In this document: positions 3,683 to 49,602 of the stretch, in pieces | Numbering within the stretch: the stretch's first letter is position 1 | Layout of the letters: each line of letters begins with the position of its first letter | NCBI GenBank assembly: GCA_044375675.1 | Contig: JBILMD010000001.1 | Span: 126,396 to 190,395, forward strand | Source of the DNA: Alphaproteobacteria bacterium | Lineage (GTDB): Bacteria > Pseudomonadota > Alphaproteobacteria > JAJTHO01 > CANGYM01 | DNA: 64,000 nucleotides | Direction of reading: 5' to 3' | Notes under the pieces: model-generated | The model's input: only the letters and a program-made list of their open reading frames with translations | Told to the model about the DNA's origin: nothing | Databases searched by the model: none | Translations under genes and position numbers: made by a program

Positions 3683-4036
3683 TCACTCTGATTTTCCTTG
3701 CAGCAAAACCTGTAGCTGTTCCAACAAAGCGGGGATGTGCAACAGAGCAACACTTAAAACAACCTCGTGGGCGATATCATCATAACCATGGGCCAGATGA
3801 TTCCTCATGCTGATGATTTTTTGCCAAGGAATTTGGGGATTTTGCTCTCTCAAGGGGGCACTGACGCGGGTGGCGGCTTCACCAAAAACATGAATTAAAC
3901 GTTGTAAAATCAATGCCGCATCAGAATCATCTTCAATACCATCCTTTCGGTAACGTTCCAATGTTTCCCCTATACGACGGCCAAAGCGGATCATATCATA
4001 CAGGGCGACGCGATCATCCCGCTGGCTTTCCCTCAT
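3683..4036 (-). CDS. hepT: HepT-like HEPN toxin (DUF86), pair 1
   Basis: R-x4-HxY HEPN motif (RNHLAHGY). Overlaps the upstream NTase gene by 4 nt. Confidence 0.8.
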   Translation of the reverse strand: MRESQRDDRVALYDMIRFGRRIGETLERYRKDGIEDDSDAALILQRLIHVFGEAATRVSAPLREQNPQIPWQKIISMRNHLAHGYDDIAHEVVLSVALLHIPALLEQLQVLLQGKSE

Positions 4037-4332
4037 AAAAACCGCACATCCTTCATAACATTTTCCTCTAAATAGGGGTTTTTGGCGATTTTTTGACGAA
4101 AAGAAAACCGCACAGGCAGGCCCGTCCGCAGGCTGAGGTCCTGCTCGGCATCCAAAAGATCAAAAAACGTAAACGGGGCGGTATAATCTATCAGGATATC
4201 CAAATCACTCCGCTCATCCGCATCGCCGCGGGCATAGCTGCCAAAGACGCCCATTTCTGTGATGGGGTATTTGGCCATCAAATCGCGTTTGGCGTCCTGC
4301 AAAATGGGCAAAAGGTCGTTGAGTGTTTTCAT
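4033..4332 (-). CDS. mntA: MntA-like minimal nucleotidyltransferase antitoxin, pair 1
   Basis: GS-x9-RG...D-x-D NTase fold motif (GVFGSYARGDADERSDLDIL). Confidence 0.8.
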   Translation of the reverse strand: MKTLNDLLPILQDAKRDLMAKYPITEMGVFGSYARGDADERSDLDILIDYTAPFTFFDLLDAEQDLSLRTGLPVRFSFRQKIAKNPYLEENVMKDVRFL

Positions 4333-4345
4333 GGGTATGCTGTTG

Positions 4346-4702
4346 TTACCAATTCAGGCCTTTGTCTTTCAAAAACATTTCTAATGCTGCAATCATGGGC
4401 GGCAGATGATCGATGACAATACGCCATACCAAAGGATTTTCAATTTCATCATAATCATGGGCAATCACGTTGCGGCATCCAATGATTTGAACCCACGGAA
4501 TATCCGGCAAGAGGGTTTTGGTTGGACCATCAACCTTTTTCGCCGCTTCACCAATAATTTGTACCGCGTGAAGCAAGGCAAATCGCCGAAGCTGATCTTC
4601 GAAATACGTGTCTTGTGTATACGGGGCAGCAAAACCCACCGCAGCGCGGGCATGATCCAACATATCCACCAGATATTGCGTGCTATCGTTCTGCCCCCTC
4701 AT
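4346..4702 (-). CDS. hepT: HepT-like HEPN toxin (DUF86), pair 2. Divergent from pair 1.
   Basis: RNVIAHDY HEPN motif. 4-nt overlap with the upstream NTase gene. Confidence 0.8.
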   Translation of the reverse strand: MRGQNDSTQYLVDMLDHARAAVGFAAPYTQDTYFEDQLRRFALLHAVQIIGEAAKKVDGPTKTLLPDIPWVQIIGCRNVIAHDYDEIENPLVWRIVIDHLPPMIAALEMFLKDKGLNW

Positions 4703-4998
4703 AAATAAACAGCCTCCTGCAAAATGCGGGGGGCCAGAAAGCGTTTTAGGCGGTTTTTGTTGACCAAATCCACGGTGGGAATGCCTGTTTTGTTCTGTAA
4801 ATACAGCTGAATATCCACGATATCAAACAGGGAAAAACCATGGGTATCCATCACATACAGAATATCCAAATCACTCCGCTCATCCGCATCACCGCGGGCG
4901 TAGCTGCCAAAGACGCCCATTTCTGTGATGGGGTATTTGGCCATCAAATCGCGTTTGGCGTCCTGCAAAATGGGCAAAAGGTCGTTGAGTGTTTTCAT
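4699..4998 (-). CDS. mntA: MntA-like nucleotidyltransferase antitoxin, pair 2. Start taken at the internal Met MKTLNDLL. The annotated N-terminal extension merely translates a repeat element.
   Basis: First 47 residues identical to pair-1 MntA, then divergent. NTase motif present. ATG verified at 4998. Confidence 0.75.
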   Translation of the reverse strand: MKTLNDLLPILQDAKRDLMAKYPITEMGVFGSYARGDADERSDLDILYVMDTHGFSLFDIVDIQLYLQNKTGIPTVDLVNKNRLKRFLAPRILQEAVYL

Positions 4999-5555
4999 GG
5001 GTATGCTGCTGACCAACCGTCCCCCAACTTTGCCACGGTTTGGGGGGGCAGGGAAGGGGATTTTTTCAACACAACCCTTTTTCGCCTCCACCCCAAAAAA
5101 ATTTCATAAAATTCTTGACGCATATATATATATATATTAAATTAAATGTTCACCCATAGCATTGCCACAATCCCGTGGATAAGATGCTTGGGCCTCACAA
5201 AGGTGAACCATGACCAACCGTCAACCGACGATGCCTGCCATAATCGCTCAGGCGATTTCCGGACAATTCGTTCGACTTCCCATCAAAATCAGAATTTTTC
5301 TGATTCTTGGCGGATCTGCAGCTTTGCTGCTTCCCCCAGCTTTGTATTTTAACAAAGCTATAATCCAATGGATGGCACCTATCGCCGAATCTCGACGTAT
5401 CTGCACCCAGAATGGGGGAAGAAACGCTATGGGACCAGATGAATTTCTCCATCCCCTATGGCTAAAATCTAGCGGATGGTGCAACTTCTCCAGCATCACT
5501 GGCCGCAATGCTGCGTGGGAATGGGATGTGAAAAACTGGAAGCCCTGAGACCACA

Positions 5556-14702: not shown

Positions 14703-14751
14703 CTGTTACCTGTTACCTGTAATCTGTTACCTGTTACCTGTTACCTGTATG
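14703..14751 (+). repeat. Heptanucleotide tandem array (CTGTTAC)x7, two units degenerate. The last unit contains the argB ATG.
   Basis: ctgttac ctgttac ctgtaat ctgttac ctgttac ctgttac ctgtATG read directly from the sequence. Confidence 0.9.
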
Positions 14752-25174: not shown

Positions 25175-25819
25175 ATGGGTGGTGAAACACAGTTGGAAAC
25201 ATCTTACTGGCAGCTCACCGAGAAGATGAACAAAACACTCAATCGGTTTTTAAAACAACATCAGGATACTGACGACATAGATGATTGTACTTCGTCTATT
25301 TTGCATGCCTTTATTGCTAAAATATTATGTTCCAAAACTTTACTAAAAACCTACCCCCGCCAACCCATTGCACCGGATGAAATAGGCACATTAAGCTCAG
25401 AAGAACAAGCTGACCTACATGATACAGCAACGCACATCGCAACCCGCATAAAAGAACTTATTCTACAACAAGATATATGTCTTAAAAGTTTTCAATACAT
25501 AAGAGAGTCGGACGATACAAAATGCATAATAGAATATGATGAACCAGAACCTGAAACCAAAGACAAAATACAAAATCTTTTAGATAATAACGAGTTACGC
25601 GACCTCTGGACTCTTTTAACAAATTTACAACCTTATGTATTACACGCCCCTCCTAACCCCCATTTCCAAATAAATGAATCCTCTTTAATCTTATCTATTT
25701 TGATGTCATTAGATATTTTTGAAGGCATGACAAAAGATCAACCTCAAGAAACACAAACAACACATCCTGTACCGGAATTGGCAAAATTTTTAAAAACCTA
25801 CCACCAACGAACCGCCTAA
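25175..25819 (+). CDS. Hypothetical protein (AT-rich orphan, acidic)
   Basis: Long ORF, low GC. No recognisable motif. Confidence 0.35.
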   Translation: MGGETQLETSYWQLTEKMNKTLNRFLKQHQDTDDIDDCTSSILHAFIAKILCSKTLLKTYPRQPIAPDEIGTLSSEEQADLHDTATHIATRIKELILQQDICLKSFQYIRESDDTKCIIEYDEPEPETKDKIQNLLDNNELRDLWTLLTNLQPYVLHAPPNPHFQINESSLILSILMSLDIFEGMTKDQPQETQTTHPVPELAKFLKTYHQRTA

Positions 25820-26753: not shown

Positions 26754-27646
26754 TGGTTATGTCCCTATCGTACCGTTTGACCCTGATCAACACCGTGGAT
26801 GGCGTTTCCCCAAAGGACGCCCAGCGCGCGGCGACCTTTCTGAACACCGCCCCCCCCCACCCCTTTGGCGAAGGCCGCGCGGTGGATGTGCTTTACACCC
26901 CCGATGCCCCCACCGATGCCATGGCCTTGGCCACTGCTGTTCGGGATCTCTGGGGGGATCATCCCACGCCGTTTGATCTGTGTGTTCAAGATGCGGCGGC
27001 GCCCCGCCAAAAACGCCTGTTGCTGTCGGATATGGATGCCACCATTGTGGCCGAAGAATCGCTGGACGTTCTGGCCGATTATGCCGGCTGCGGCGAGGCC
27101 GTGGCCACCATCACCGCGCGGGCCATGCGGGGGGATCTGGATTTTCACGCCGCTCTGCGGGAACGTGTGGCTCTGCTGCGGGGGCAACCTGCCACGCTGA
27201 TTGATCGGGCTCTATCGGATATGACCCTGTCCGCGGGGGCCAGCGATTTGGTGACAACCATGCGGGGCTGGGGGGCCAAAACCATCCTGATTTCCGGCGG
27301 ATTCACCCCCTTTACCCAGCACGTGGCCGCTGTGGTGGGCTTTGATGACGCGGTGGGCAACACCTTGGGCCTTCATGATGGGCACTTCACGGGCGACGTT
27401 CTGGGCCCCATCGTGGATAAACACGTCAAACAGCAAACCCTGCTTGAGCAGGCGAGTGCCCTTAACCTCTCCCCCGCCGATACCTTGGCCGTGGGGGATG
27501 GGGCCAACGATCTGCTGATGCTGCAGGCCGCCGGCCTCGGCGTCGCCTATCGCGGCAAGCCCCTGCTGAAACAATCCATGCCCACGTGGGTGGACATCAG
27601 CGATCTAACCGCACTGCTGTATATGCAGGGCTGGGGCAACAAATAA
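26750..27646 (+). CDS. serB: Phosphoserine phosphatase (HAD family)
   Basis: HAD motifs LLLSDMDATIV, ILISGGFTP and AVGDGANDLLM. Confidence 0.85.
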   Translation: MMVMSLSYRLTLINTVDGVSPKDAQRAATFLNTAPPHPFGEGRAVDVLYTPDAPTDAMALATAVRDLWGDHPTPFDLCVQDAAAPRQKRLLLSDMDATIVAEESLDVLADYAGCGEAVATITARAMRGDLDFHAALRERVALLRGQPATLIDRALSDMTLSAGASDLVTTMRGWGAKTILISGGFTPFTQHVAAVVGFDDAVGNTLGLHDGHFTGDVLGPIVDKHVKQQTLLEQASALNLSPADTLAVGDGANDLLMLQAAGLGVAYRGKPLLKQSMPTWVDISDLTALLYMQGWGNK

Positions 27647-27657
27647 ACCCCGCATCA

Positions 27658-27727
27658 TTTTTTTTCCCAAAACACAAAAAAATGTGACAAATGGCACGGC
27701 ACGGCACGGCACGGCATAATGGGAGGG
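27658..27727 (+). promoter_or_regulatory. Repeat cassette copy 1: T-run + CCCAAAACACAAAAAAATGTGACAAATG + (GGCAC)4 + GGCATAATGGG
   Basis: Read directly. Contains a TGTGAC -35-like or CRP-half-site-like element and a CATAAT -10-like element separated by the pentamer microsatellite. Confidence 0.5.
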
Positions 27728-27781
27728 TAAACTCAACAAAAAAGTAAACCTTTTTGTTGTCCACACCTGAGGCCCAAACAA

Positions 27782-28096
27782 ATGGCTGTCTACATCGTAA
27801 CGGGAGAAATCCCTTCAAACGAACCAACGATCACCCCAGAAAGGATAATTTGTGATAGTAATGTCACTCCTCTCTTAATGCTTATAAAAGAAGAGTTTTG
27901 TAAGATTCCCCCATCCGCAGAACAAAGGCTTCTGTGTCTTTGTTTGCCATATAAATCAACCCTACCAAAGTACACACATTGGTACACAACCATTAATGTG
28001 TGCCAAAAAAGTGAGATGAGGATAGTTTGTCCAAGTCCCACCTTTGGCCTTCAGAGCAGGACTTCAAAATCCTGTCCAGAAATCTGTTTAATATAG
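27782..28096 (+). CDS. Small Cys-rich hypothetical protein (104 aa) downstream of cassette copy 1
   Basis: ORF follows the cassette and a 5'-UTR hairpin (27733-27758). AT-rich. No recognisable motif. Confidence 0.3.
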   Translation: MAVYIVTGEIPSNEPTITPERIICDSNVTPLLMLIKEEFCKIPPSAEQRLLCLCLPYKSTLPKYTHWYTTINVCQKSEMRIVCPSPTFGLQSRTSKSCPEICLI

Positions 28097-28199
28097 CAAA
28101 AACGCTTCACGATAATGATGATGGTAGCGATCCATACAGGATGGATCGCCATAAGAAGTTGATAAAGCTTCCTATTATTTTCGGTGAGTGATGAGTAGA

Positions 28200-28223
28200 G
28201 AGAGGCCCCCCACGGGGCCTCTC
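28200..28223. terminator. Bidirectional hairpin GAGAGGCCCC-CCAC-GGGGCCTCTC between convergent genes
   Basis: 10-bp perfect stem. The same CACGGGRCCTCTCC module recurs at 31384 and 32522. Confidence 0.4.
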
Positions 28224-28239
28224 CCCAACCCCTCCCCCC

Positions 28240-28683
28240 CTACGCCGCCGTAGACTTCTTCCCCAAAACCGCTCTGTCGATAATCTCCTCCAGCGCTATT
28301 GAGGAATCGCATTTGCGCAAAATCCCCCCAAAGGATAACACGCCGGAAACCTTGCCCCCCCGCATCACCACCAAACGGCTGACATCGTGGCGATGCATGA
28401 CATCGGCGGCCTTTTGCAGGGACTCTGTCTCTTCAACGCTGCAAACCTTGGGGGTCATGCATTCCTTAACAGTCACATCGGATGGTTTTCGATTGTCCAC
28501 AACACCCCGCAAAACAATATCGCGGTCTGTTAAAATGCCCAGAAGATGGTCTGTGGTACCCACGGGCAACATCCCACAATCGATTCTTTTCATGACCTTG
28601 GCGGCCTCGGCCAAGCTGGCCTCTGGACTGATAAAAACAGGTTGATCCACCATCACGGATTTTATGGTTGTTTTGTGCATCAT
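28240..28683 (-). CDS. CBS-pair domain protein
   Basis: Two CBS motifs (GILTDRDIVLRGV, VSGVLSFGGILRK). Confidence 0.7.
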   Translation of the reverse strand: MMHKTTIKSVMVDQPVFISPEASLAEAAKVMKRIDCGMLPVGTTDHLLGILTDRDIVLRGVVDNRKPSDVTVKECMTPKVCSVEETESLQKAADVMHRHDVSRLVVMRGGKVSGVLSFGGILRKCDSSIALEEIIDRAVLGKKSTAA

Positions 28684-28904
28684 GCTGATCTCCTTTGAAT
28701 GAGAATAAAGTTATATTTTACAACACACCCCAACCGTGCTACGTTTTCTGTATAAAAAATTTGATTTTCATCAAATCCATAAAAATATTTTTTGATAGAA
28801 TGATGGATATACTATAGTTATGTTTTGACTATGGTTTTTGGCACCCAACCAAAATGACCTGACACGCGCTTTCTATGAATCCTAAAAAAACCTAGAGTAT
28901 CGCC

Positions 28905-29642
28905 ATGTCCATTCCCCATGATTTCCTGAAAACCCTTCCGTTGTTTGCTGATTTTACAGGGCAAGAGGTCGCGCTGTTAGAGACAAAATGTCGCTTGCGA
29001 ACCTATGAAGAAAAACAAATCCTTTTTACCCAAGGGGATTCTATCACGTCCCTTTATGTCATGTGTCAGGGGACCCTGCAAATTTTTCGCGATACCCAAA
29101 CGGGGCACGAGGTCACCACAGACATCCTGATTGCGGGGGATCTTTTGGGGGCGGACGATATGCTAAATGCCGTGGAATCCCATACATCCAGCGCCAAAGC
29201 CGTGGATAAAACCATTCTGATTGACATTCCGGCACCGTGGGTCAGGCAGAGTTTAAAAAATTTCAATGGCTTGGGCGAACACCTTTTGGAATATGTCTCC
29301 AAACGCCTGCACCAGGCCCAAACGGAAATGGAACAACGCATCACCATGACTGCCCCCCAATTGATTGCCTGTTATTTGCAGCGGCTTTGCTTTTTGTATG
29401 GCTTTGATCCTGGGGGGTTTGATTTGCCCTATAAAAAAACCCTCATTGCCTCGCGATTGGGGATGGCCCTAGAAACCTTTTCCAGGGCCCTGGAAAAACT
29501 TTCTGAACATGGCATCATCGTTTCAGGCCATCATGTTTCCATCCATTCCCATGAAAAGGCTGAAAAATTTTCATGCTCAGAGTGTTCTGCAAACGACATT
29601 TGTGAAAACCATCACGCGCTGAGAAAAAAAAGCAGCCTTTGA
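28905..29642 (+). CDS. Crp/Fnr-family transcriptional regulator with a C-terminal Cys cluster
   Basis: N-terminal cNMP-binding-like domain, HTH TLIASRLGMALETFSRALEKL, and a C-terminal CSECSANDIC. Confidence 0.8.
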   Translation: MSIPHDFLKTLPLFADFTGQEVALLETKCRLRTYEEKQILFTQGDSITSLYVMCQGTLQIFRDTQTGHEVTTDILIAGDLLGADDMLNAVESHTSSAKAVDKTILIDIPAPWVRQSLKNFNGLGEHLLEYVSKRLHQAQTEMEQRITMTAPQLIACYLQRLCFLYGFDPGGFDLPYKKTLIASRLGMALETFSRALEKLSEHGIIVSGHHVSIHSHEKAEKFSCSECSANDICENHHALRKKSSL

Positions 29643-29768
29643 TGCACGTCAAATCTTTTCCAAAGCAGCCATGATTTAAACAAGCCATGCGGCTCTACCC
29701 AAGCAGACCAAAAACCGCTTGGGTCGGGTTGTGTTTGTTTCCCTGCAAAAAAGAAAGGACCTTTTGTT

Positions 29769-30443
29769 ATGACATCCGTTTTTTTTCCTCACTTGCGTGC
29801 CAGTGCCCCTTGGTGGGATTCCTATGTAACCATGCAACAGACGTGGAACGATTTAACACGCCAGGCTTTTTCTATGGTCCCCTCCCCTTTGGGATGGACA
29901 GATGAGGCCGATGTTTTTCGTGCCACACAACGGGCGGCAGAGCGCTTGCTCAGCGATGCCTTTAACACTACACAATCGTCCTTGCCTTGGATCCAAAAGG
30001 GACAGCTGATGCCCTCGCTTGACATCACAGAAACAGACAAAGCCTTTGCTTTGCGTGTAGAGCTGCCTGGCATTGCCACAGATGATGTGGATGTGTCCAC
30101 AAAGAATGGATCCCTGATTGTGCGGGGGGAAAAGAAAGCCGAGCAAACACAGGACAACGCATCCTGTCTGCGCCGCGAATGCACCTATGGGTCTTTTGAG
30201 CGCGTTGTGGCCCTGCCCAAAGAGGCAGACCTGAACAAAGCCGAAGCCACCTTCAAAAACAACGTTCTCACCATCCAAATTCCCAAAACGACCAAGGCCG
30301 CAGAAACCGCTGTGAAAATCCCTGTACAGCAAGAAAAGGGGTCCCCTTCGACACCTGTGGGCATCAAAACCGAAGGCACACACAGCTTGGGCCAACACAC
30401 ACAGGGCGCGGGTCAGTCGGCCCCCGCCAAAAAGATCGCGTAA
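29769..30443 (+). CDS. Hsp20/alpha-crystallin small heat-shock protein. Start uncertain: 29769, 29832 and an internal Met are all possible.
   Basis: Alpha-crystallin domain PSLDITETDKAFALRVELPGI...GSLIVRGEKK...GSFERVVALP...ATFKNNVLTIQIPK. Confidence 0.8.
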   Translation: MTSVFFPHLRASAPWWDSYVTMQQTWNDLTRQAFSMVPSPLGWTDEADVFRATQRAAERLLSDAFNTTQSSLPWIQKGQLMPSLDITETDKAFALRVELPGIATDDVDVSTKNGSLIVRGEKKAEQTQDNASCLRRECTYGSFERVVALPKEADLNKAEATFKNNVLTIQIPKTTKAAETAVKIPVQQEKGSPSTPVGIKTEGTHSLGQHTQGAGQSAPAKKIA

Positions 30444-30474
30444 CGGTTAAGGCGTAACTGTTAAGGAGAGTACG

Positions 30475-30987
30475 ATGAATAAGCTCCACCAGGAAACGCG
30501 CGTTGTGGTCGCGGACGCTGTCCGCGCCCGCTTTTTCCGCGTATCCCCCCCCGAATTTCGTTTCGAAGAGTTCCATTCCGACATGGCCCAGCATGTTCCG
30601 CAGTCGGCGCACAGCACCCTGACCGAAGATTCTGAAGATCTGGTGTCGCTTCAGGGGCGGACAACATCGGCCTCGCGTGGGGATATGGGGCGCAGCCATG
30701 AATCGGCGTCCCCAACGCGGCATGTCATCGAATCGCGCAGCACGGACCAGGACTTGGACCGCACAGCCTTTGCCCAGCGGATCGTGAATCATTTGGAACA
30801 ACAGTTTCGCAATCATCGCTTTGATCGTCTGGTGCTGGTCATGCCCAGCCGCATGTTGGGGGAGGTCCGCCGGTATCTCCCAAAACCCCTGCAATCTATC
30901 CTGACCCACGAACTGGATCACGAATGGACCCCCCTGCCCACCAGCGATATCCAAGATCGCCTCAGGGACACCTTGGGCCACCTTTAA
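30475..30987 (+). CDS. Host-attachment-protein family (PF10116-like) protein
   Basis: N-terminal VVVADAVRARFF and C-terminal FDRLVLVMPSRMLGEVRRYLPKPLQ match my memory of this alphaproteobacterial family. A 250-aa ORF on the opposite strand is rejected. Confidence 0.6.
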   Translation: MNKLHQETRVVVADAVRARFFRVSPPEFRFEEFHSDMAQHVPQSAHSTLTEDSEDLVSLQGRTTSASRGDMGRSHESASPTRHVIESRSTDQDLDRTAFAQRIVNHLEQQFRNHRFDRLVLVMPSRMLGEVRRYLPKPLQSILTHELDHEWTPLPTSDIQDRLRDTLGHL

Positions 30988-30995
30988 AAAAACAG

Positions 30996-31073
30996 TTTTT
31001 TTTCCAAAAACACAAAAAAATGTGACAAATGGCACGGCACGGCACGGCACGGCACGGCACGGCATAATGGGGG
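30996..31073 (+). promoter_or_regulatory. Repeat cassette copy 2 with (GGCAC)6
   Basis: Same cassette as copy 1. The pentamer occupies 31031-31060. Confidence 0.5.
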
Positions 31074-31107
31074 CTCTTTCACAAAGTCCAACAAGGACTT
31101 TTTTCAC

Positions 31108-31362
31108 ATGGATCAAGAAGCAATTCTTGCCTTACTGCGAGAAAAAATCACCTCAACCCTAGAAAACATTCACAGGGATGGACGGGTGATTATTTTTTAC
31201 AGGACCCCAAAAATGGAGTGGTCAGCAAACACTGTATTTACCCAACGGTTTTTACAAAACCAAGCTCAGCTTATGGCCTCCCATATACGGGAAGGTCAGA
31301 CGCTGACCGTGGAATACTCTCACGAGGGTTTTTTTCCTGAGATCACACTTACGGTTTCCTGA
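31108..31362 (+). CDS. Small hypothetical protein (84 aa) downstream of cassette copy 2
   Basis: ORF starts 7 nt after the 5'-UTR hairpin AAAGTCC-aacaa-GGACTTT (31083-31101). Followed by a hairpin at 31371-31394. Confidence 0.35.
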   Translation: MDQEAILALLREKITSTLENIHRDGRVIIFYRTPKMEWSANTVFTQRFLQNQAQLMASHIREGQTLTVEYSHEGFFPEITLTVS

Positions 31363-31414
31363 ACAGCAAGGAGAGGTCTCCCACGGGACCTCTCCCCCGC
31401 CCATGCCTGTTTCC

Positions 31415-31693
31415 CTATGATTTCACAACAGGTGTAAAATCGGACCATTGTTCAATGCGAAAGGCCCGAATGTCCCGCACGGATTTTTGAAACCATTCCC
31501 GCGAGCGCAGCCCCTGAATAGCCATAAACAAAATCGCCATGTTTTCATTTTCTGTGACGTACAGACTGCCTTGAACACGGTGAAAGCCATGCTCGCCCAA
31601 AACGGCCCCAATTTCTGTATAGGCCTGCGATACCCCTTTGGGATGATATTTTTCCGCATCCGCAACAACCAAATCAAAGGCAACGGCGTACAT
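31415..31693 (-). CDS. vapD: VapD-family (Cas2-like) endoribonuclease
   Basis: MYAVAFDL...QGSLYV...WFQKSVRDIRAFRIEQWSDFT closely matches my memory of H. influenzae VapD (MYAIAFDL...QGSVYV...WFKKSVRDIRAFKV). Confidence 0.8.
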   Translation of the reverse strand: MYAVAFDLVVADAEKYHPKGVSQAYTEIGAVLGEHGFHRVQGSLYVTENENMAILFMAIQGLRSREWFQKSVRDIRAFRIEQWSDFTPVVKS

Positions 31694-31695
31694 GA

Positions 31696-31986
31696 CTAAG
31701 GTGCCTCTGGATCGTCATTCAAATGGGTCCAGCGGTATTCTGTTTTTTCCCCCGTTTCCACCACCGTGATTTCCACCATCCAATCATCATCCCCCCATGG
31801 GCGCACAACAGGACCCACCTGATACTTGGGACCAAACGGCCCAAAGCTTTTGATTTTACCCGTGGGCACAACAGGGACAGCATGGATCATGGGGGATAAA
31901 AACCTCTTGAAAACAGCATCATCATCCCACAACAGATGGGTTTTTGTCAAGGAATCCATCAACAGGGAACCCCCACCCCGCCCCAT
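31696..31986 (-). CDS. Hypothetical VapD partner (about 96 aa). Possible antitoxin or VapX analogue.
   Basis: Its stop lies 2 nt before the vapD start. Start taken at ATG 31986. The ORF-track N-terminal extension is just translation of the GGCAC repeat. Confidence 0.45.
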   Translation of the reverse strand: MGRGGGSLLMDSLTKTHLLWDDDAVFKRFLSPMIHAVPVVPTGKIKSFGPFGPKYQVGPVVRPWGDDDWMVEITVVETGEKTEYRWTHLNDDPEAP

Positions 31987-31996
31987 GACACAAAAA

Positions 31997-32078
31997 TTTT
32001 TTTCCCAAAACACAAAAAAATGTGACAAATGGCACGGCACGGCACGGCACGGCACGGCACGGCACGGCATAATGGGGG
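31997..32078 (+). promoter_or_regulatory. Repeat cassette copy 3 with (GGCAC)7
   Basis: Same cassette. The pentamer occupies 32031-32065. Lies in the divergent region between the vapD-partner gene and a small plus-strand ORF. Confidence 0.5.
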
Positions 32079-32112
32079 CTGTTTCATAAAGTCCCAAGGA
32101 CTTTTTCAGCCA

Positions 32113-32358
32113 ATGGCTACCTCAAAAGAGTACATCCTCGGTCAGCTTCAGACACTTTGTCCTGATGCCGGTCGGGGTCAGGAGTTCTCCCTTTATACAA
32201 CCATAGGACTAGGATCTTCCGGACCTCGAAGGGTTTCTTCCTGTCTGAGCTACCTGGCCTCTTGCGCCTATAATGACCAGAATCAAGCGGCGAGCTCAGA
32301 AGCCAAAGTTCGGGATATTAGACGTGAAGGAGATAACATACTCATAACAATTCTCTGA
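32113..32358 (+). CDS. Small hypothetical protein (81 aa) downstream of cassette copy 3
   Basis: ATG at 32113, preceded by the 5'-UTR hairpin AAAGTCC-caa-GGACTTT (32088-32104). Three hairpins follow the stop. Confidence 0.35.
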   Translation: MATSKEYILGQLQTLCPDAGRGQEFSLYTTIGLGSSGPRRVSSCLSYLASCAYNDQNQAASSEAKVRDIRREGDNILITIL

Positions 32359-32460
32359 TGATCGATGATCAAGAAGCAGGGCCCCAAAAAAGCCCTGCTT
32401 TCCGTATAGACCGACTCAGACCCAATCGGGAATCTGAGTCGGCAGGGGGATCATGTGACA

Positions 32461-32486
32461 GGGGGCCGTTGGCCCCCCTTTTTTTT
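32461..32486 (+). terminator. Intrinsic terminator GGGGGCC-GTT-GGCCCCC + T8
   Basis: Perfect 7-bp GC stem, 3-nt loop and a T8 run. Third of three consecutive hairpins after ORF 32113-32358. Confidence 0.55.
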
Positions 32487-32527
32487 CCCAAAACACAAAA
32501 AAATGTGACAAATGGCACGGCACGGGG
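32479..32527 (+). repeat. Repeat cassette copy 4: truncated, (GGCAC)2, no CATAAT. Fused to the GGGGCCTCTCC module.
   Basis: T8 + CCCAAAACACAAAAAAATGTGACAAATGGCACGGCACGGGGCCTCTCC. Confidence 0.6.
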
Positions 32528-32537
32528 CCTCTCCTTC

Positions 32538-32572
32538 CCTGTCACCTGTCACCCGTCACCTGTCACCTGTCC
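32538..32572 (+). repeat. Heptanucleotide array (CCTGTCA/CTGTCAC)x5, imperfect, abutting the rplY stop
   Basis: cctgtca cctgtca cccgtca cctgtca cctgtcc. One base different from the argB array unit CTGTTAC. Confidence 0.85.
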
Positions 32573-32576
32573 CCCC

Positions 32577-33176
32577 TCACTCCCCCGCTTCTTCCGCAGT
32601 GCCGCTCTTCGGTGCGACGATGGTGGCCAAGGTAAAGTCACGGTCAGTGATGGTCAACGTCACGCCCTCTGGCAGGGTCAGGATGCTGGATTTGATGGCA
32701 TCCCCGATTTTGGCATTCAGCAGATCAATTTCAAAGTGCGATGGGATTTTGCTGGCGTAACACAGAACCTCCACCGTGTGGCGCACGACGTTCAGGACAC
32801 CGCCGGCCTTTAGCCCGCGGCATTTGTCGGTGTTGGTTAAATGCAGGGGCACGGAAACCTTGATTTTGGTTTTGTCCGTCACGCGCATGAAATCCACGTG
32901 GATGGGTTGGTCTGTGACGCGGTTAAACTGAACGGCCTTGGGCAGGGCGCGGATGGGGCGGCCCTGATCGGGGGTCAATTCATACACAGTGGCGTAAAAG
33001 GATTCGTTGTGCAATCCGGCCATCAAATCCCGAATATCCAAAGAAAAGGTGACATTGTCATCCCCACCCCCATAAACAACACCCGGAACGCGGCCGGTGG
33101 TGCGCAAACGGTACATGGCATTTTTGCCCGTTTCGGTGCGGGTGGTGACGGGAATGGTGCGGGCGGTGGAACTCAT
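32577..33176 (-). CDS. rplY: 50S ribosomal protein L25 / general stress protein Ctc
   Basis: L25/Ctc N-domain ([11 protein letters not shown]...LHLTN) with a long C-terminal Ctc-type extension. Confidence 0.9.
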
Positions 33177-34117
33177 GATTTAACTCCTTCAAATAAACTC
33201 GATACGGAACGGTCTTCTGCAATACGAACCATGGCCTCCGCCAGCAGCGGGGCCATGGTCAATTGACGAATTTTTTCAGCATGACGCACATCATCTGTGG
33301 CCACGATACTATCGGTTATCACCAAATTTTCAAGAGGAGATTCCATCACCCGTGCCACGGCACCCCCCGACAAAACCCCATGGGTGACATAGGCGGAAAC
33401 ACTCCGCGCCCCCTGATTCATAATGGCCACCGCCGCGTTGCACAGCGTGCCCGCCGAATCCACAATATCATCCACCATAATGCAATGGCGATCCCGAATA
33501 TCCCCGATGATGTTCATCACCTCAGACATACCGGCTTTTTCCCGCCGTTTGTCAATAATGGCCAAATCGCCGCCCAGACGCTTGGCAATGGCCCGCGCCC
33601 GCATCACACCGCCCACATCGGGGGAAACAATCACGGGGGACCGGTTTGCAAAGGTGCGCTGAATGTCCTCAACAAACACCGGTGCGCTGTACAAATTATC
33701 GGTGGGAATATCGAAAAACCCCTGAATCTGACCGGCATGCAAATCCAGCGTCAACACACGGCTGGCGCCCGCCACGGTGATCAGGTTGGCCACCAGCTTG
33801 GCGGAAATGGGGGTACGGGGGCCGGATTTGCGATCCTGACGGGCATAGCCAAAATACGGAATCACGGCCGTAATGCGCTGTGCCGATCCGCGGCGCAGCG
33901 CATCGATCATCACCAGCAATTCCATCAAATGATCATTGGCCGGATAGGATGTGGGCTGGATGACAAAAACGTCCTGACCGCGCACATTTTCATGAACCTC
34001 AACAAAAATTTCCATATCGGAAAAACGCTTCACCGAGGCCTGTGTCAAAGACACGCCCAGAATCGCGGAGATATTGTCCGCCAGCGGTCGATTCGCGTTG
34101 CAGGTTAAAATTTTCAT
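33173..34117 (-). CDS. prs: Ribose-phosphate pyrophosphokinase
   Basis: [21 protein letters not shown]...[14 protein letters not shown]...[12 protein letters not shown] verified at 34117. Confidence 0.95.
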
Positions 34118-48051: not shown

Positions 48052-49602
48052 TTGTTTAAGCACGAGATCCACCCCATGGTCCCAGCCAACCCCGCGCACC
48101 AAGACGAATCCATCGCCATGGGCGATTGGCGGCGTTTGTTTTTGGCCTTCAGCCCCACGGGCGAACCCTATACCACCAAAGGGGATATTCTCAGCATCCT
48201 GTCCAAAAACGGCATTCATAAAAAAGATAACCGTATTCAGGATTTGATTGAGGCCCTAGAGGCCTACACCACAAAAGAGCCCATAGATTTTGAAACCTTC
48301 CGATCCTTGGCCGGACGTCATGTCTATTTGCTGCAACGCGCGGCGCAGGGCGGCTTTATTATCCCTGATTTTTCAGGATTTACGGATCATATTGCCCAGA
48401 TTTATCAGGATCTTTTGTCCATCAACACTGGCGATGTGGCCCGTTATATCCCCCAACTGGCCAGAGTGGACCCCAAATATCTGGGCATCAGCGTTTGCAC
48501 AGTGGATGGACAAACGTTTGATATTGGGGATACGGATGTGGGTTTTTGTGTGCAATCCACCTGCAAACCCGTGACCTATTGCATTGCGCTGGAGGACGTT
48601 GGCGAAGACACAGTCCACGCCCACGTGGGCCGCGAACCCAGCGGGCAAAATTTTAACGCCATTACACTCAACAGCAAAAACCTGCCCCATAACCCCATGA
48701 TCAACGCGGGATCCATGGTGTGTGCATCCCTGATTCGCCCCCAACAACCGCTGGCGGATCGTTTTGATGCCATTTTATCCGTCTGGCAAAGGTTGTGCGG
48801 CGGCGTGCGCCCGGGATTCAACAGCTCGGTGTATCATTCTGAAAAGGAAACAGCCGACCGCAACTTTGCACTGGCGTATTTTTTAAAGGAAGTGGGGGCC
48901 TTCCCCAGCGGCACAGATATTCATCAAACCTTGGATCTGTATTTTCAGTGTTGCTCTATTGAGGTCACAACCAAAGCCATGGCCACCCTGGCCGCAACCT
49001 TTGCCGGCGCAGGTGTGTGCCCCATGACGGGGGAGCGCGTGCTGTCCCCAGCATCCGTAAAACATGGCTTATCCCTGATGTTATCCTGCGGCATGTATAA
49101 TTTTTCGGGGGAATTTGCCTTTACTGTGGGCTTGCCAGCAAAATCGGGGATTTCCGGCGTGATTATGCTGGTGGTGCCGGGGGTAATGGGCATCACCATT
49201 TGGTCCCCCCGTCTGGACCCTTTGGGCAACAGCGTGCGGGGGGTGGCATTTTGCGAAAAGCTGGTGTCGCTTTACAATTTCCATAATTTTGACGGGGTGG
49301 GGCCCGCGTCCGAAAAAACGGATCCCCGTCTGCACGCCCATCAGGAAAAACAATACTTGGCCCTTTCCCTGATTCTGGCCAGCAGCCAAGGGGATCTGGA
49401 CGAGGTCAAACGCCTGATGGCCCGCGGGGCATCCCCCAATGTTCCCGATTATGATGGACGCACGGCCCTGCATTTGGCCGCGGCAGAGGGACGGCAAGAG
49501 GTCGCCCGTTATCTGTGCCGTCTGGGGGCCAGTTTGGATGTGCGGGATCGTTTTGGGCGCACCCCGCGCGAAGAAGCCGCTGCTTCGGGAATCACCCTGT
49601 GA
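48052..49602 (+). CDS. glsA: Eukaryote-type (kidney-type) glutaminase: EF-hand-like N-domain, glutaminase domain, C-terminal ankyrin repeats
   Basis: [13 protein letters not shown]...[25 protein letters not shown]...[15 protein letters not shown] parallels my memory of human GLS (FVIPDFMSFTSHI...[25 protein letters not shown]). C-terminal ANK repeats ([13 protein letters not shown]...). Confidence 0.85.
   Translation: [516 protein letters not shown]

Follow-up and report, generated by a model that had tools for sequence, protein, structure and literature searches.

In a 64-kb window of contig JBILMD010000001.1 from an Alphaproteobacteria bacterium (positions 126,396 to 190,395; all coordinates below count from the first letter of this window), the region between serB and rplY carries four copies of a short cassette built around a pentanucleotide microsatellite, (GGCAC)n. 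Each of the three intact copies heads a small module with its own open reading frame (ORF), and further copies were found in relatives. The best explanation, to which we give somewhat better than even credence, is that the cassette is the promoter of its module and that the length of the tract would set the position of an upstream element and hence the output. On this evidence, the GGCAC tract probably tunes or switches the expression of each module. Comparison of the sequences also indicates that the block upstream of the tract is under constraint, or is continually homogenized, across at least four species-level genomes, that the tract is the fastest-changing part of the cassette, and that recombination within the shared cassette exchanges, removes and relocates modules.

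Cassette copies and module anatomy

The 34-mer AAAACACAAAAAAATGTGACAAATGGCACGGCAC was found exactly four times in the window, always on the + strand (at 27669, 31007, 32007 and 32490), as against 0.00 copies expected from shuffled sequences. The motif GGCACGGCAC was found 15 times, where 0.28 occurrences were expected, and all 15 lie within the four cassette copies. The cassette is laid out as a run of seven or eight T, an A-rich block, AAAAAATGTGACAAAT, the (GGCAC)n tract and GGCATAATGGG, and the copies start at 27658, 30996, 31997 and 32479. Tract lengths in the window were read directly, with Tandem Repeats Finder and regular expressions. An earlier reading of this DNA, made from the sequence only, had described four copies with n = 4, 6, 7 and 2; all four were recovered with these lengths, where chance would give none.

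27658..27723 (+), cassette copy 1: T8 (27658-27665), A-rich block and AAAAAATGTGACAAAT to 27692, (GGCAC)4 (27693-27712), GGCATAATGGG (27713-27723); directly after the serB stop codon
30996..31071 (+), cassette copy 2: T8, a CCAAAAACAC variant, AAAAAATGTGACAAAT, (GGCAC)6 (31031-31060), GGCATAATGGG; directly after the Host_attach stop codon
31997..32076 (+), cassette copy 3: T7, CCCAAAACAC, AAAAAATGTGACAAAT, (GGCAC)7 (32031-32065), GGCATAATGGG
32479..32534 (+), cassette copy 4, an emptied module: full upstream block and (GGCAC)2 (32514-32523), then GGGGCCTCTCC; the repeat is joined at CACGG to CACGGGGCCTCTCC (32521-32534)

Copy 4 is without the -10 element, the leader and the cargo, and its hairpin half is followed by TTCC and then by heptamers. 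The order within a module is terminator or T-run, cassette, leader of about 30 nt with a hairpin that overlaps the ribosome-binding site, an ORF of 80-135 aa (the cargo) and a conserved GC-rich hairpin. Every intact copy opens at a T-run, which either forms the end of a terminator or comes after the stop codon of a gene, and faces a downstream ORF, the ATG of which lies 45-51 nt past GGCATAAT in most copies. The 3' hairpin, GGAGAGGCCCC-CAC-GGGGCCTCTCC, stands 5-40 nt past the cargo stop codon, and all four combinations of its left-arm and right-arm variants occur. Within the window its motif is present only at 28202 and 31373, both of which are module ends. The parts of the window modules are as follows.

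27734..27759 (+), leader hairpin of module 1: CAACAAAAAAGT..ACCTTTTTGTTG
27782..28191 (+), cargo 1, a frameshifted pseudogene: 104-aa ORF 27782-28096 and 54-aa ORF 28027-28191
28200..28224, 3' hairpin of module 1: GAGAGGCCCC-CCAC-GGGGCCTCTCC, between cargo 1 and the convergent CBS gene
31083..31101 (+), leader hairpin of module 2: AAAGTCC-AACAA-GGACTTT, overlapping the likely Shine-Dalgarno sequence AAGGA, about 10 nt before the ATG
31108..31362 (+), cargo 2 (ORF84): 84 aa, lineage-restricted
31371..31395, 3' hairpin of module 2: GAGAGGTCTC-CCAC-GGGACCTCTCC
32088..32104 (+), leader hairpin of module 3: AAAGTCC-CAA-GGACTTT
32113..32358 (+), cargo 3 (ORF81): 81 aa, lineage-restricted
32376..32486 (+), inter-module spacer with three hairpins: 32376-32398, 32411-32442 and 32461-32478

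The stem-loops that had been proposed for the 5' untranslated regions are present at the three leader positions listed; they fold, yet with z-scores of only -0.1 to -1.5 against shuffled sequences. The recurring hairpin module described earlier was full at 28200-28224 and 31371-31395, but at 32522 only its right half was present, fused directly to the repeat. The 104-aa ORF had been taken for a small gene and proved instead to be the front of a pseudogene, the remainder of which continues in the 54-aa ORF. Its intact homologue (P0011) has 135 aa, and a 1-nt deletion near 28046 splits the gene in the window, where gene callers left it uncalled. The spacer beyond cargo 3 ends in a canonical intrinsic terminator, GGGGGCCGTTGGCCCCCC-T8 (32461-32486), whose T-tail (32479-32486) doubles as the T-run of cassette copy 4.

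Distribution and conservation of the cassette

A 20-mer scan of species-representative genomes found eight true copies in four uncultured freshwater 'Alphaproteobacteria bacterium' metagenome-assembled genomes (MAGs) of species level. Ten further loci came from a metagenome scan, and look-ups of proteins adjacent to the cassette added about 30 more contigs from ENA, JGI and Logan assemblies. The cassette is present in more than 15 metagenome assemblies, many of them from lakes. Samples that contain such loci include ERZ27272050, ERZ27272066, ERZ28593278, ERZ28593577, ERZ28593665, JGI 3300034118, 3300042542, 3300042958, 3300045061, 3300034063 and 3300034071, SRR27430920 and SRR10955843. Three loci (L009, L016 and L018) with a single GGCAC and no cassette features were discarded as chance matches. 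After de-duplication (L055 included), there remained 33 distinct intact and 7 distinct degenerate copies, the intact ones covering at least four species-level MAGs as well as the metagenomes; the element is conserved outside the window. The host clade consists of uncultured freshwater Alphaproteobacteria, and the context is that of the core chromosome (rpoB, bamA, spoT, pleD).

Conservation was scored by anchoring only on the tract and GGCATA, with the upstream sequence left free. The 16 nt before the tract (AAAAAATGTGACAAAT) were invariant in 31 distinct copies with n = 2-14, and GGCATA(A/G)TG on the 3' side of the tract was nearly invariant in the same 31; the 10 nt between the T-run and the A-run were variable. 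Copies found through proteins and not through a DNA pattern (L023, L025, L030, L031, L034, L036, L038, L050, L051 and L055) showed the same invariance. The block appears to be constrained or homogenized because it stays invariant while the synonymous divergence (dS) of the cargo between the same loci reaches about 0.8-1.2.

Cargo proteins

At least 14 cargo families follow the same cassette and are mutually unrelated by BLASTP; a profile comparison of ORF84 with ORF81 gave a probability of 0.3%, i.e. no relationship. The cargo ORFs had no match in Pfam, PHROGs or PADLOC. Among 5.8 billion proteins, the ORF84 family forms only eight clusters, and when 1.84 billion representatives were searched exhaustively with a profile, nothing other than this family and spurious repetitive proteins was returned; for ORF81, two homologous clusters were found. 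An AlphaFold model of ORF84 (pLDDT 72.7, helix-strand-strand-helix-strand-strand) had no significant structural neighbour. The ratio of non-synonymous to synonymous substitution (dN/dS) was 0.25-0.6 for ORF84 and 0.33-0.44 for ORF81, with an overall range of 0.25-0.62, which marks these as real genes that evolve as proteins under purifying selection.

Variation in tract length

Among the 33 distinct intact copies, n had a mode of 5 (n = 2 in three copies, 3 in three, 4 in five, 5 in ten, 6 in four, 7 in two, 8 in two, 9 in three and 14 in one); one more array, broken by the end of its contig, has at least 11 units. The arrays are pure with few exceptions: three loci have GACAC as their first unit, and L007 has (GGTAC)7, an expanded variant unit that is a signature of slippage. 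At the locus where Host_attach is followed by ORF84, copies with cargo 100% identical over 300 nt had n = 6, 4 and 3, and more diverged orthologues had n = 2, 5, 6 and 8. At the Host_attach>MDQSS locus, arrays that share 889 nt of identical flank had n = 14 and n of at least 11, and another, with n = 4, had a flank that is 97% identical and a downstream sequence identical at 55/55 positions. The variability of the tract that had been read from the differences among the window copies is thereby extended to n = 2-14 and to orthologous loci. Of the phase variation that had been proposed with it, the polymorphism between strains holds, and nothing beyond that is supported. Many contigs end at arrays; these are multi-copy repeats, which is sufficient alone to account for the breaks.

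Exchange of modules between slots and strains

BLAST of related loci against the window, together with gene tables, revealed a conserved backbone of three blocks, folD-serB, CBS-Crp/Fnr-Hsp20-Host_attach and rplY-prs-pth, with variable slots after serB and after Host_attach. The slot after serB holds five different cargoes among strains, and the slot between Host_attach and rplY holds zero to three modules, with or without a VapD/DUF5397 or a zeta-toxin pair. Cargo families change places between loci. The ORF84 family lies after Host_attach in the window and before CBS in L036; ORF81 lies before rplY in the window and directly after serB in L015 and L038; and the P0011 family lies after serB in the window and beside vapD in L055. 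Other cassette sites in relatives are between ligA and an ABC permease gene, beside a rhodanese gene and near rpsA/ihfB. In L023 and L025, the cargo is 100% identical to that of the window over 300 nt and the upstream genes are only 90-94% identical; the junction is placed inside the cassette because identical cargo sits on diverged upstream genes. L030 is a recombinant, in which the upstream variant of copy 2 is combined with the tract and cargo of copy 3, and the parental arrangement was found in the same sample. The portability that had been suggested for the cassette is supported by the occurrence of the same cargo in different slots and on diverged backbones, and by the copies at other chromosomal sites.

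The emptied-module junction, with its CACGG microhomology, was found as six sequence variants in several contexts. A different remnant was observed in L049 (1228-1318), where Host_attach is followed by T7-CCCAAAACACAAAAAA, 15 nt, the 3' hairpin and vapD; everything from TGTGAC through nearly all of the cargo has been lost, and the junction differs from CACGG.

Such junctions could mean that the cassette serves above all for recombination, through a CACGG core at the tract unit junctions and in the 3' hairpin loop, and by means of a dedicated recombinase or of template switching, tract length being a by-product. All module junctions do lie inside the cassette, the emptied module recurrently joins (GGCAC)2 to the hairpin exactly at CACGG, and the hairpin, for which all four arm combinations exist, is found only with modules. 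We nevertheless regard this as improbable. No recombinase, integrase or transposase was found near the island, either in the window flanks or in the fetched 8-11-kb loci, where the flanking genes are folD, serB, CBS, crp/fnr, hsp20, host_attach, rplY, prs, pth, an EAL gene and a response regulator gene. The deletion in L049 used another junction, and a recombination site leaves the -10-like box and its fixed distance to the ATG unexplained. Homologous recombination between direct repeats of 70-100 nt, together with microhomology deletion, is sufficient for all of the module exchange seen.

Outside the two slots, a 214-aa ORF at 25175-25819, upstream of folD, is AT-rich (32-44% GC) and has no Pfam match; unrelated sequence takes its place in L005, L007 and L008, making this a further strain-variable slot.

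The cassette as a probable promoter

The promoter-like character attributed to the cassette is borne out by its anatomy: it always follows a terminator or T-run, always faces an ORF, and places CATAAT about 38-44 nt ahead of the start codon. CATAAT matches TATAAT at 5/6 positions, and its sole variant, CATAGT, retains the critical A and T of positions 2 and 6. Unrelated modules cease to be homologous 3-5 nt past CATAAT; beyond this come a G-rich stretch and the leader of about 30 nt with its ribosome-binding site. A plausible reading of GGCATAATGGG is that it comprises a -10 element (CATAAT), a G-rich discriminator and the start region. As a separate observation, the leader of the ORF123 module (L003 2090-2120) has a second CATAAT 16 nt past the first, and in L031 (751-780) both are now CATAGT, in parallel or by conversion.

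The sequence-only reading had the tract act as the spacer between a -35 hexamer and the -10 hexamer, and on this point the geometry fails. The distance from TGTGAC to CATAAT is 5n+6 nt, amounting to 26, 36 and 41 nt in the window copies, and that from GTGACA to CATAAT is 5n+5 nt, so a usable spacer (16 or 15 nt) arises only at n = 2. A promoter of this kind, with TGTGAC or GTGACA as its -35 hexamer, would be ON only at n = 2 and OFF with any longer tract. GTGACA is a 5/6 match to TTGACA as CATAAT is to TATAAT, three distinct intact copies do have n = 2 (L012/L013, L017 and L034/L035), and a majority-OFF gene family is known from vlhA of Mycoplasma gallisepticum. But such a switch would leave 30 of the 33 distinct intact copies OFF, and many of these would need 3-12 steps to reach ON; slippage is poor in a tract of only two units, which would make the switch irreversible; no n gives 17 nt; and the cargo is under purifying selection at all n. 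We consider a spacer switch highly improbable.

A consensus scan found only ATGGCA-18-CATAAT, in the n = 4 copy. When n is 5 or more, the sequence from -35 to -13 (23 nt before CATAAT) is the same repeat sequence whatever the value of n, so the tract can alter only the distance of the upstream block to the -10 element. In the mechanism that we favour, the upstream block would be an activator or UP-type element that needs a place next to the -35 position. The tract would change its length via slippage or unequal exchange, each unit shifting the block by 5 bp, half a helical turn, and promoter output would change with it, on/off or in a graded manner, as with (GAA)n at vlhA or (TAAA)n at nadA of Neisseria meningitidis.

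The upstream block contains a dyad of CRP geometry, TGTGACAAATGGCACG (GTG-N8-CAC). On the assumption that transcription starts 7 nt past CATAAT, the centre of the dyad lies at -(16.5+5n), which is -41.5 at n = 5 and -61.5 at n = 9. These are the canonical positions of class II and class I activators, respectively, at CRP/FNR promoters. The predicted optimum is n = 5, the modal value, which would put the dyad near -41.5 and leave 22 nt between block and CATAAT; the window copies, with n = 4, 6 and 7, would be one or two slips away from it.

Two viral contigs from one sample (L040 1540-1670, IMGVR_UViG_3300035670_000058; and L054 5900-5920) contain TGTGACAWWTGGCMC directly abutting a perfect TTGACA, three times in all. 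In L040, 25 nt are identical to the cassette, and overlapping GTGACA/GTCACA palindromes resemble an operator. The phage block ends 23 nt before the -10 position; the corresponding distance in the cassette is 5(n-1)+2 nt, equal to 22 at n = 5. This arrangement suggests that the block acts as a promoter-upstream element in the phage contigs, and AAAAAATGTGACAAATGGCAC is the candidate protein-binding sequence of the cassette.

A simpler possibility is that the cassette is a promoter in which only the -10 element and its local context matter, the microsatellite being a neutral passenger whose n varies via slippage and unequal recombination. With n of 5 or more, the constancy of the 23 nt upstream of CATAAT would leave the core promoter unchanged; n is stable within clones and has a smooth, unimodal distribution; and the cargo is under purifying selection at every n. 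Neutral bacterial microsatellites, however, normally decay via point mutation, and here every intact copy, in at least four species, has kept its tract, with hardly any impure arrays. The tract also adjoins a 16-nt invariant block whose distance to the -10 element depends on it, and that block stands at a fixed position relative to the -35 hexamer in the phage promoters. We judge a neutral tract to be unlikely, though it deserves to be taken seriously.

If a promoter lay further upstream, in the T-run and A-rich block (-35 TT(G/C)CCA, 16-17-nt spacer, -10 ACAAAT), the tract would be transcribed, and (GGCAC)n would be the 5' end of an mRNA and act as RNA, e.g. as a two-tier G-quadruplex or through a short upstream ORF from AAATGG. 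All variants do have a TT(G/C)C(A/C)A hexamer 15-17 nt ahead of ACAAAT, there is an ATG where the tract begins, and TAATG in GGCATAATGG forms a stop-start overlap. We give this hardly any credence, since ACAAAT matches TATAAT at only 3/6 positions and lacks the critical A at position 2, and since in the phages the block is upstream of a -35 hexamer and does not itself serve as a -10 hexamer. The upstream ORF changes frame with n in no consistent way, and a switch by upstream ORF or translational frameshift from this ATG was rejected on that ground. Folding of the cassette is not unusual (z = -1.4), and in Rfam searches 27000-33500 had no match with E <= 1, nor did the window as a whole have one that reached the gathering score.

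Several observations weigh against a promoter governed by tract length. Wherever both 300-nt flanks were 100% identical across independent assemblies, n was identical as well (the cases with n = 6 and 7, and L012=L013, L020=L021, L031=L032 and L034=L035). Assembly consensus gives no sign of rapid within-clone switching, although a consensus cannot show minority alleles, and recombination events accompany many of the differences in n. That the distribution has a single peak, around 5, could reflect mutational equilibrium instead of selection. We infer the promoter role from anatomy alone, and no good -35 hexamer was found at 16-18 nt from CATAAT, the best being ATGGCA or ACGGCA within the tract. 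The phage similarity comes from two related contigs of a single sample. The cargo proteins are not obviously surface or host-interaction proteins, unlike the products of classic contingency genes. Finally, the Crp/Fnr protein encoded in the island is not an obvious reader of the block, because it has an FNR-type ETFSR recognition helix and a box of its own: a perfect FNR/FixK box, TTGATTTTCATCAA (TTGAT-N4-ATCAA), lies at 28761-28774 between the divergent CBS and Crp/Fnr genes. With this helix and box, it is an unlikely reader of TGTGA-N6-GCACG. The regulator has no N-terminal Cys cluster and has a Cys/His-rich C-terminal tail.

Other identities considered

A sigma-54 promoter (TGGCAC-N5-TTGCW) was rejected, as its GG and GC must be 10 nt apart and in TGGCACGGCACGGCA, whichever register is taken, the GC lies 1 nt too near. 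A Xer/dif site was rejected too: GCATAATG is similar to the XerC arm of dif, but no inverted XerD arm follows a 6-nt spacer. An integron was dismissed on the lack of an IntI tyrosine recombinase with attI in the window flanks and the 8-11-kb loci. Nor is the 3' element an attC site (57-141 nt, with R''/L''-L'/R' boxes), being a 25-nt perfect hairpin without a GTTRRRY core. A miniature inverted-repeat transposable element or Correia-type element was excluded, as no inverted repeat links the cassette or module ends and the flanks show no duplication. Dispersed palindromes of the repetitive extragenic palindromic (REP) or bacterial interspersed mosaic element (BIME) type do not fit a hairpin motif confined in the window to its two module ends.

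Neighbouring genes and other repeats

The remaining features of the island are listed below. Pfam confirmed the CBS, Crp/Fnr, Hsp20, Host_attach/baeRF12, VapD (Cas2-like) and DUF5397 genes, and the heptamer array was found where it had been described.

28240..30987, lineage-conserved core block, outside the cassette system, made up of the next four genes
28240-28683 (-), CBS
28905-29642 (+), Crp/Fnr
29769-30443 (+), Hsp20
30475-30987 (+), Host_attach/baeRF12
31415..31959 (-), toxin-antitoxin (TA)-like pair: VapD (Cas2-like) 31415-31693 and DUF5397 31696-31959
31971..31996, 26-nt block CCCCACCCCGCCCCATGACACAAAAA, abutting the T-run of cassette copy 3 and holding a partial duplicate of cassette CCCAAAACACAAAAA
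32538..32572 (+), heptamer array (CCTGTCA)n beside the rplY stop codon; its copy number varies between strains

The VapD/DUF5397 pair is a swappable part of the mosaic, and relatives have a zeta-toxin pair in the same place. CCCCACCCCGCCCCATGACACAAAAA, which is also present in L031 (2055-2080) and L006 (397-422), lies between the cassette T-run and two unrelated divergent TA operons, DUF5397-VapD in the window and, among relatives, the zeta-toxin pair; the block may be part of a divergent promoter common to both.

The TGTCAC of the heptamer array is the reverse complement of the cassette GTGACA. These hexamers recur around the modules, in the cassette core TGTGACAAAT, in heptamer arrays (CTGTCAC)n (32538-32572 in the window), in reversed heptamers GGTGACAGGTAACAGG ahead of the inter-module terminator (32453-32463), and in L012 and L034. 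They could be the mark of a common DNA-binding protein. Elsewhere in the window, a (CTGTTAC)x6.6 heptamer array (14703-14748) runs right up to the ATG (14749) of a gene for an argB-like amino-acid kinase. The unit of this array is of one family with that of the (CCTGTCA)n array beside rplY, and the pattern gave nine matches where 0.16 were expected.

Two tandem HEPN-like/nucleotidyltransferase (MNT) TA-like pairs, assigned by inspecting translations, lie between lpdA and rpoB (3683-5000, -); a 154-nt repeat, 97% identical between its copies (4192-4345 and 4858-5011), is common to both MNT genes. The C-terminal extension of a glutaminase (48052-49602) weakly matches an ankyrin-repeat Dot/Icm effector model (AnkY/LegA9, E = 1.3e-7), which might point to a eukaryotic host with which the bacterium interacts.

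Comparison with known systems

The cassette had been presented as having no described equivalent. This was too strong, since the (GAA)n of M. gallisepticum vlhA and the (TAAA)n of N. meningitidis nadA are close functional analogues, the vlhA family being by its likeness the closest in both function and architecture. At vlhA (pMGA), a variable (GAA)n lies about 40 nt upstream of the start in many genes, between conserved flanks; repeat number differs among paralogues and strains, and activity is thought to need 12 (PMC6258824). Both are multi-copy regions, a promoter at vlhA and a probable one here, in which a variable tract stands between flanks that are conserved irrespective of n (here in 31 copies, n = 2-14). 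However, the unit is a trinucleotide at vlhA and a pentanucleotide here, and a single paralogous lipoprotein family there corresponds to at least 14 unrelated families of small orphan ORFs (ORFans) here. The modules described here also end in a conserved 3' hairpin and change places among slots and among strains. Their host is an environmental alphaproteobacterium, that of vlhA a pathogen.

At nadA, (TAAA)n upstream of the core promoter shifts the spacing and phasing of NadR operators, IHF and RNA polymerase contacts, giving periodic expression levels with the -35/-10 spacer unchanged (PMC2791445). It is a single locus with known regulators, whereas the present cassette has many copies and a 5-bp step. 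In the classic spacer tracts, (TA)n at Haemophilus hifA/B, the homopolymers of Neisseria opc and porA and poly-A at Mycoplasma hyorhinis vlp, the spacer stays near 17 nt. They share with the cassette a simple repeat, in a promoter region there and a probable one here, whose length differs among strains; here the distance would be 5n+5 or 5n+6 nt.

Integrons and superintegrons are likewise strain-variable arrays of small ORFans and TA pairs with a hairpin-forming 3' element. The modules differ from them in having neither intI nor attI, and in carrying each its own promoter-like cassette where integron cassettes are mostly promoterless. Phage morons are autonomous promoter-gene-terminator units, and Correia elements of Neisseria are small dispersed repeats that bring promoters to their neighbours. 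The cassette approaches these in having an upstream block common to a phage promoter region; its modules, however, occupy core chromosomal slots, not a prophage, and have no terminal inverted repeats or target-site duplications. Full-text searches of the literature on GGCAC or pentanucleotide promoter tracts turned up no account of this element.

Significance

Here a hypervariable tract between conserved flanks occurs as a multi-copy portable unit before unrelated ORFans in uncultured lake Alphaproteobacteria, in which the cassette is also the junction for module exchange between strains. Even if the tract is neutral, this is a clean case of short shared promoter/terminator sequences organizing gene replacement in hot spots. 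If the tract does control expression, stochastic bet-hedging by simple repeats reaches free-living plankton, and the ORFans of a flexible genome acquire a handle, in the form of a defined element with a predicted ON state at n = 5 and a candidate protein-binding site.

More tentatively, and as an idea that we put forward with considerable doubt, the modules may form a gene-cassette system without an integrase, in which exchangeable expression units with a built-in pentanucleotide switch would let a population of free-living freshwater Alphaproteobacteria express, stochastically, a changing repertoire of small proteins specific to the lineage. Given the TA modules nearby and the promoter element in common with phages, such a repertoire would possibly serve interactions with phages or competitors. 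To our knowledge, nearly all cases of promoter switching driven by repeats come from host-adapted pathogens, such as Neisseria, Haemophilus and Mycoplasma, in which surface antigens are under its control. An integrase-free switchable cassette system, if this proves to be one, would extend contingency-locus behaviour beyond such pathogens.

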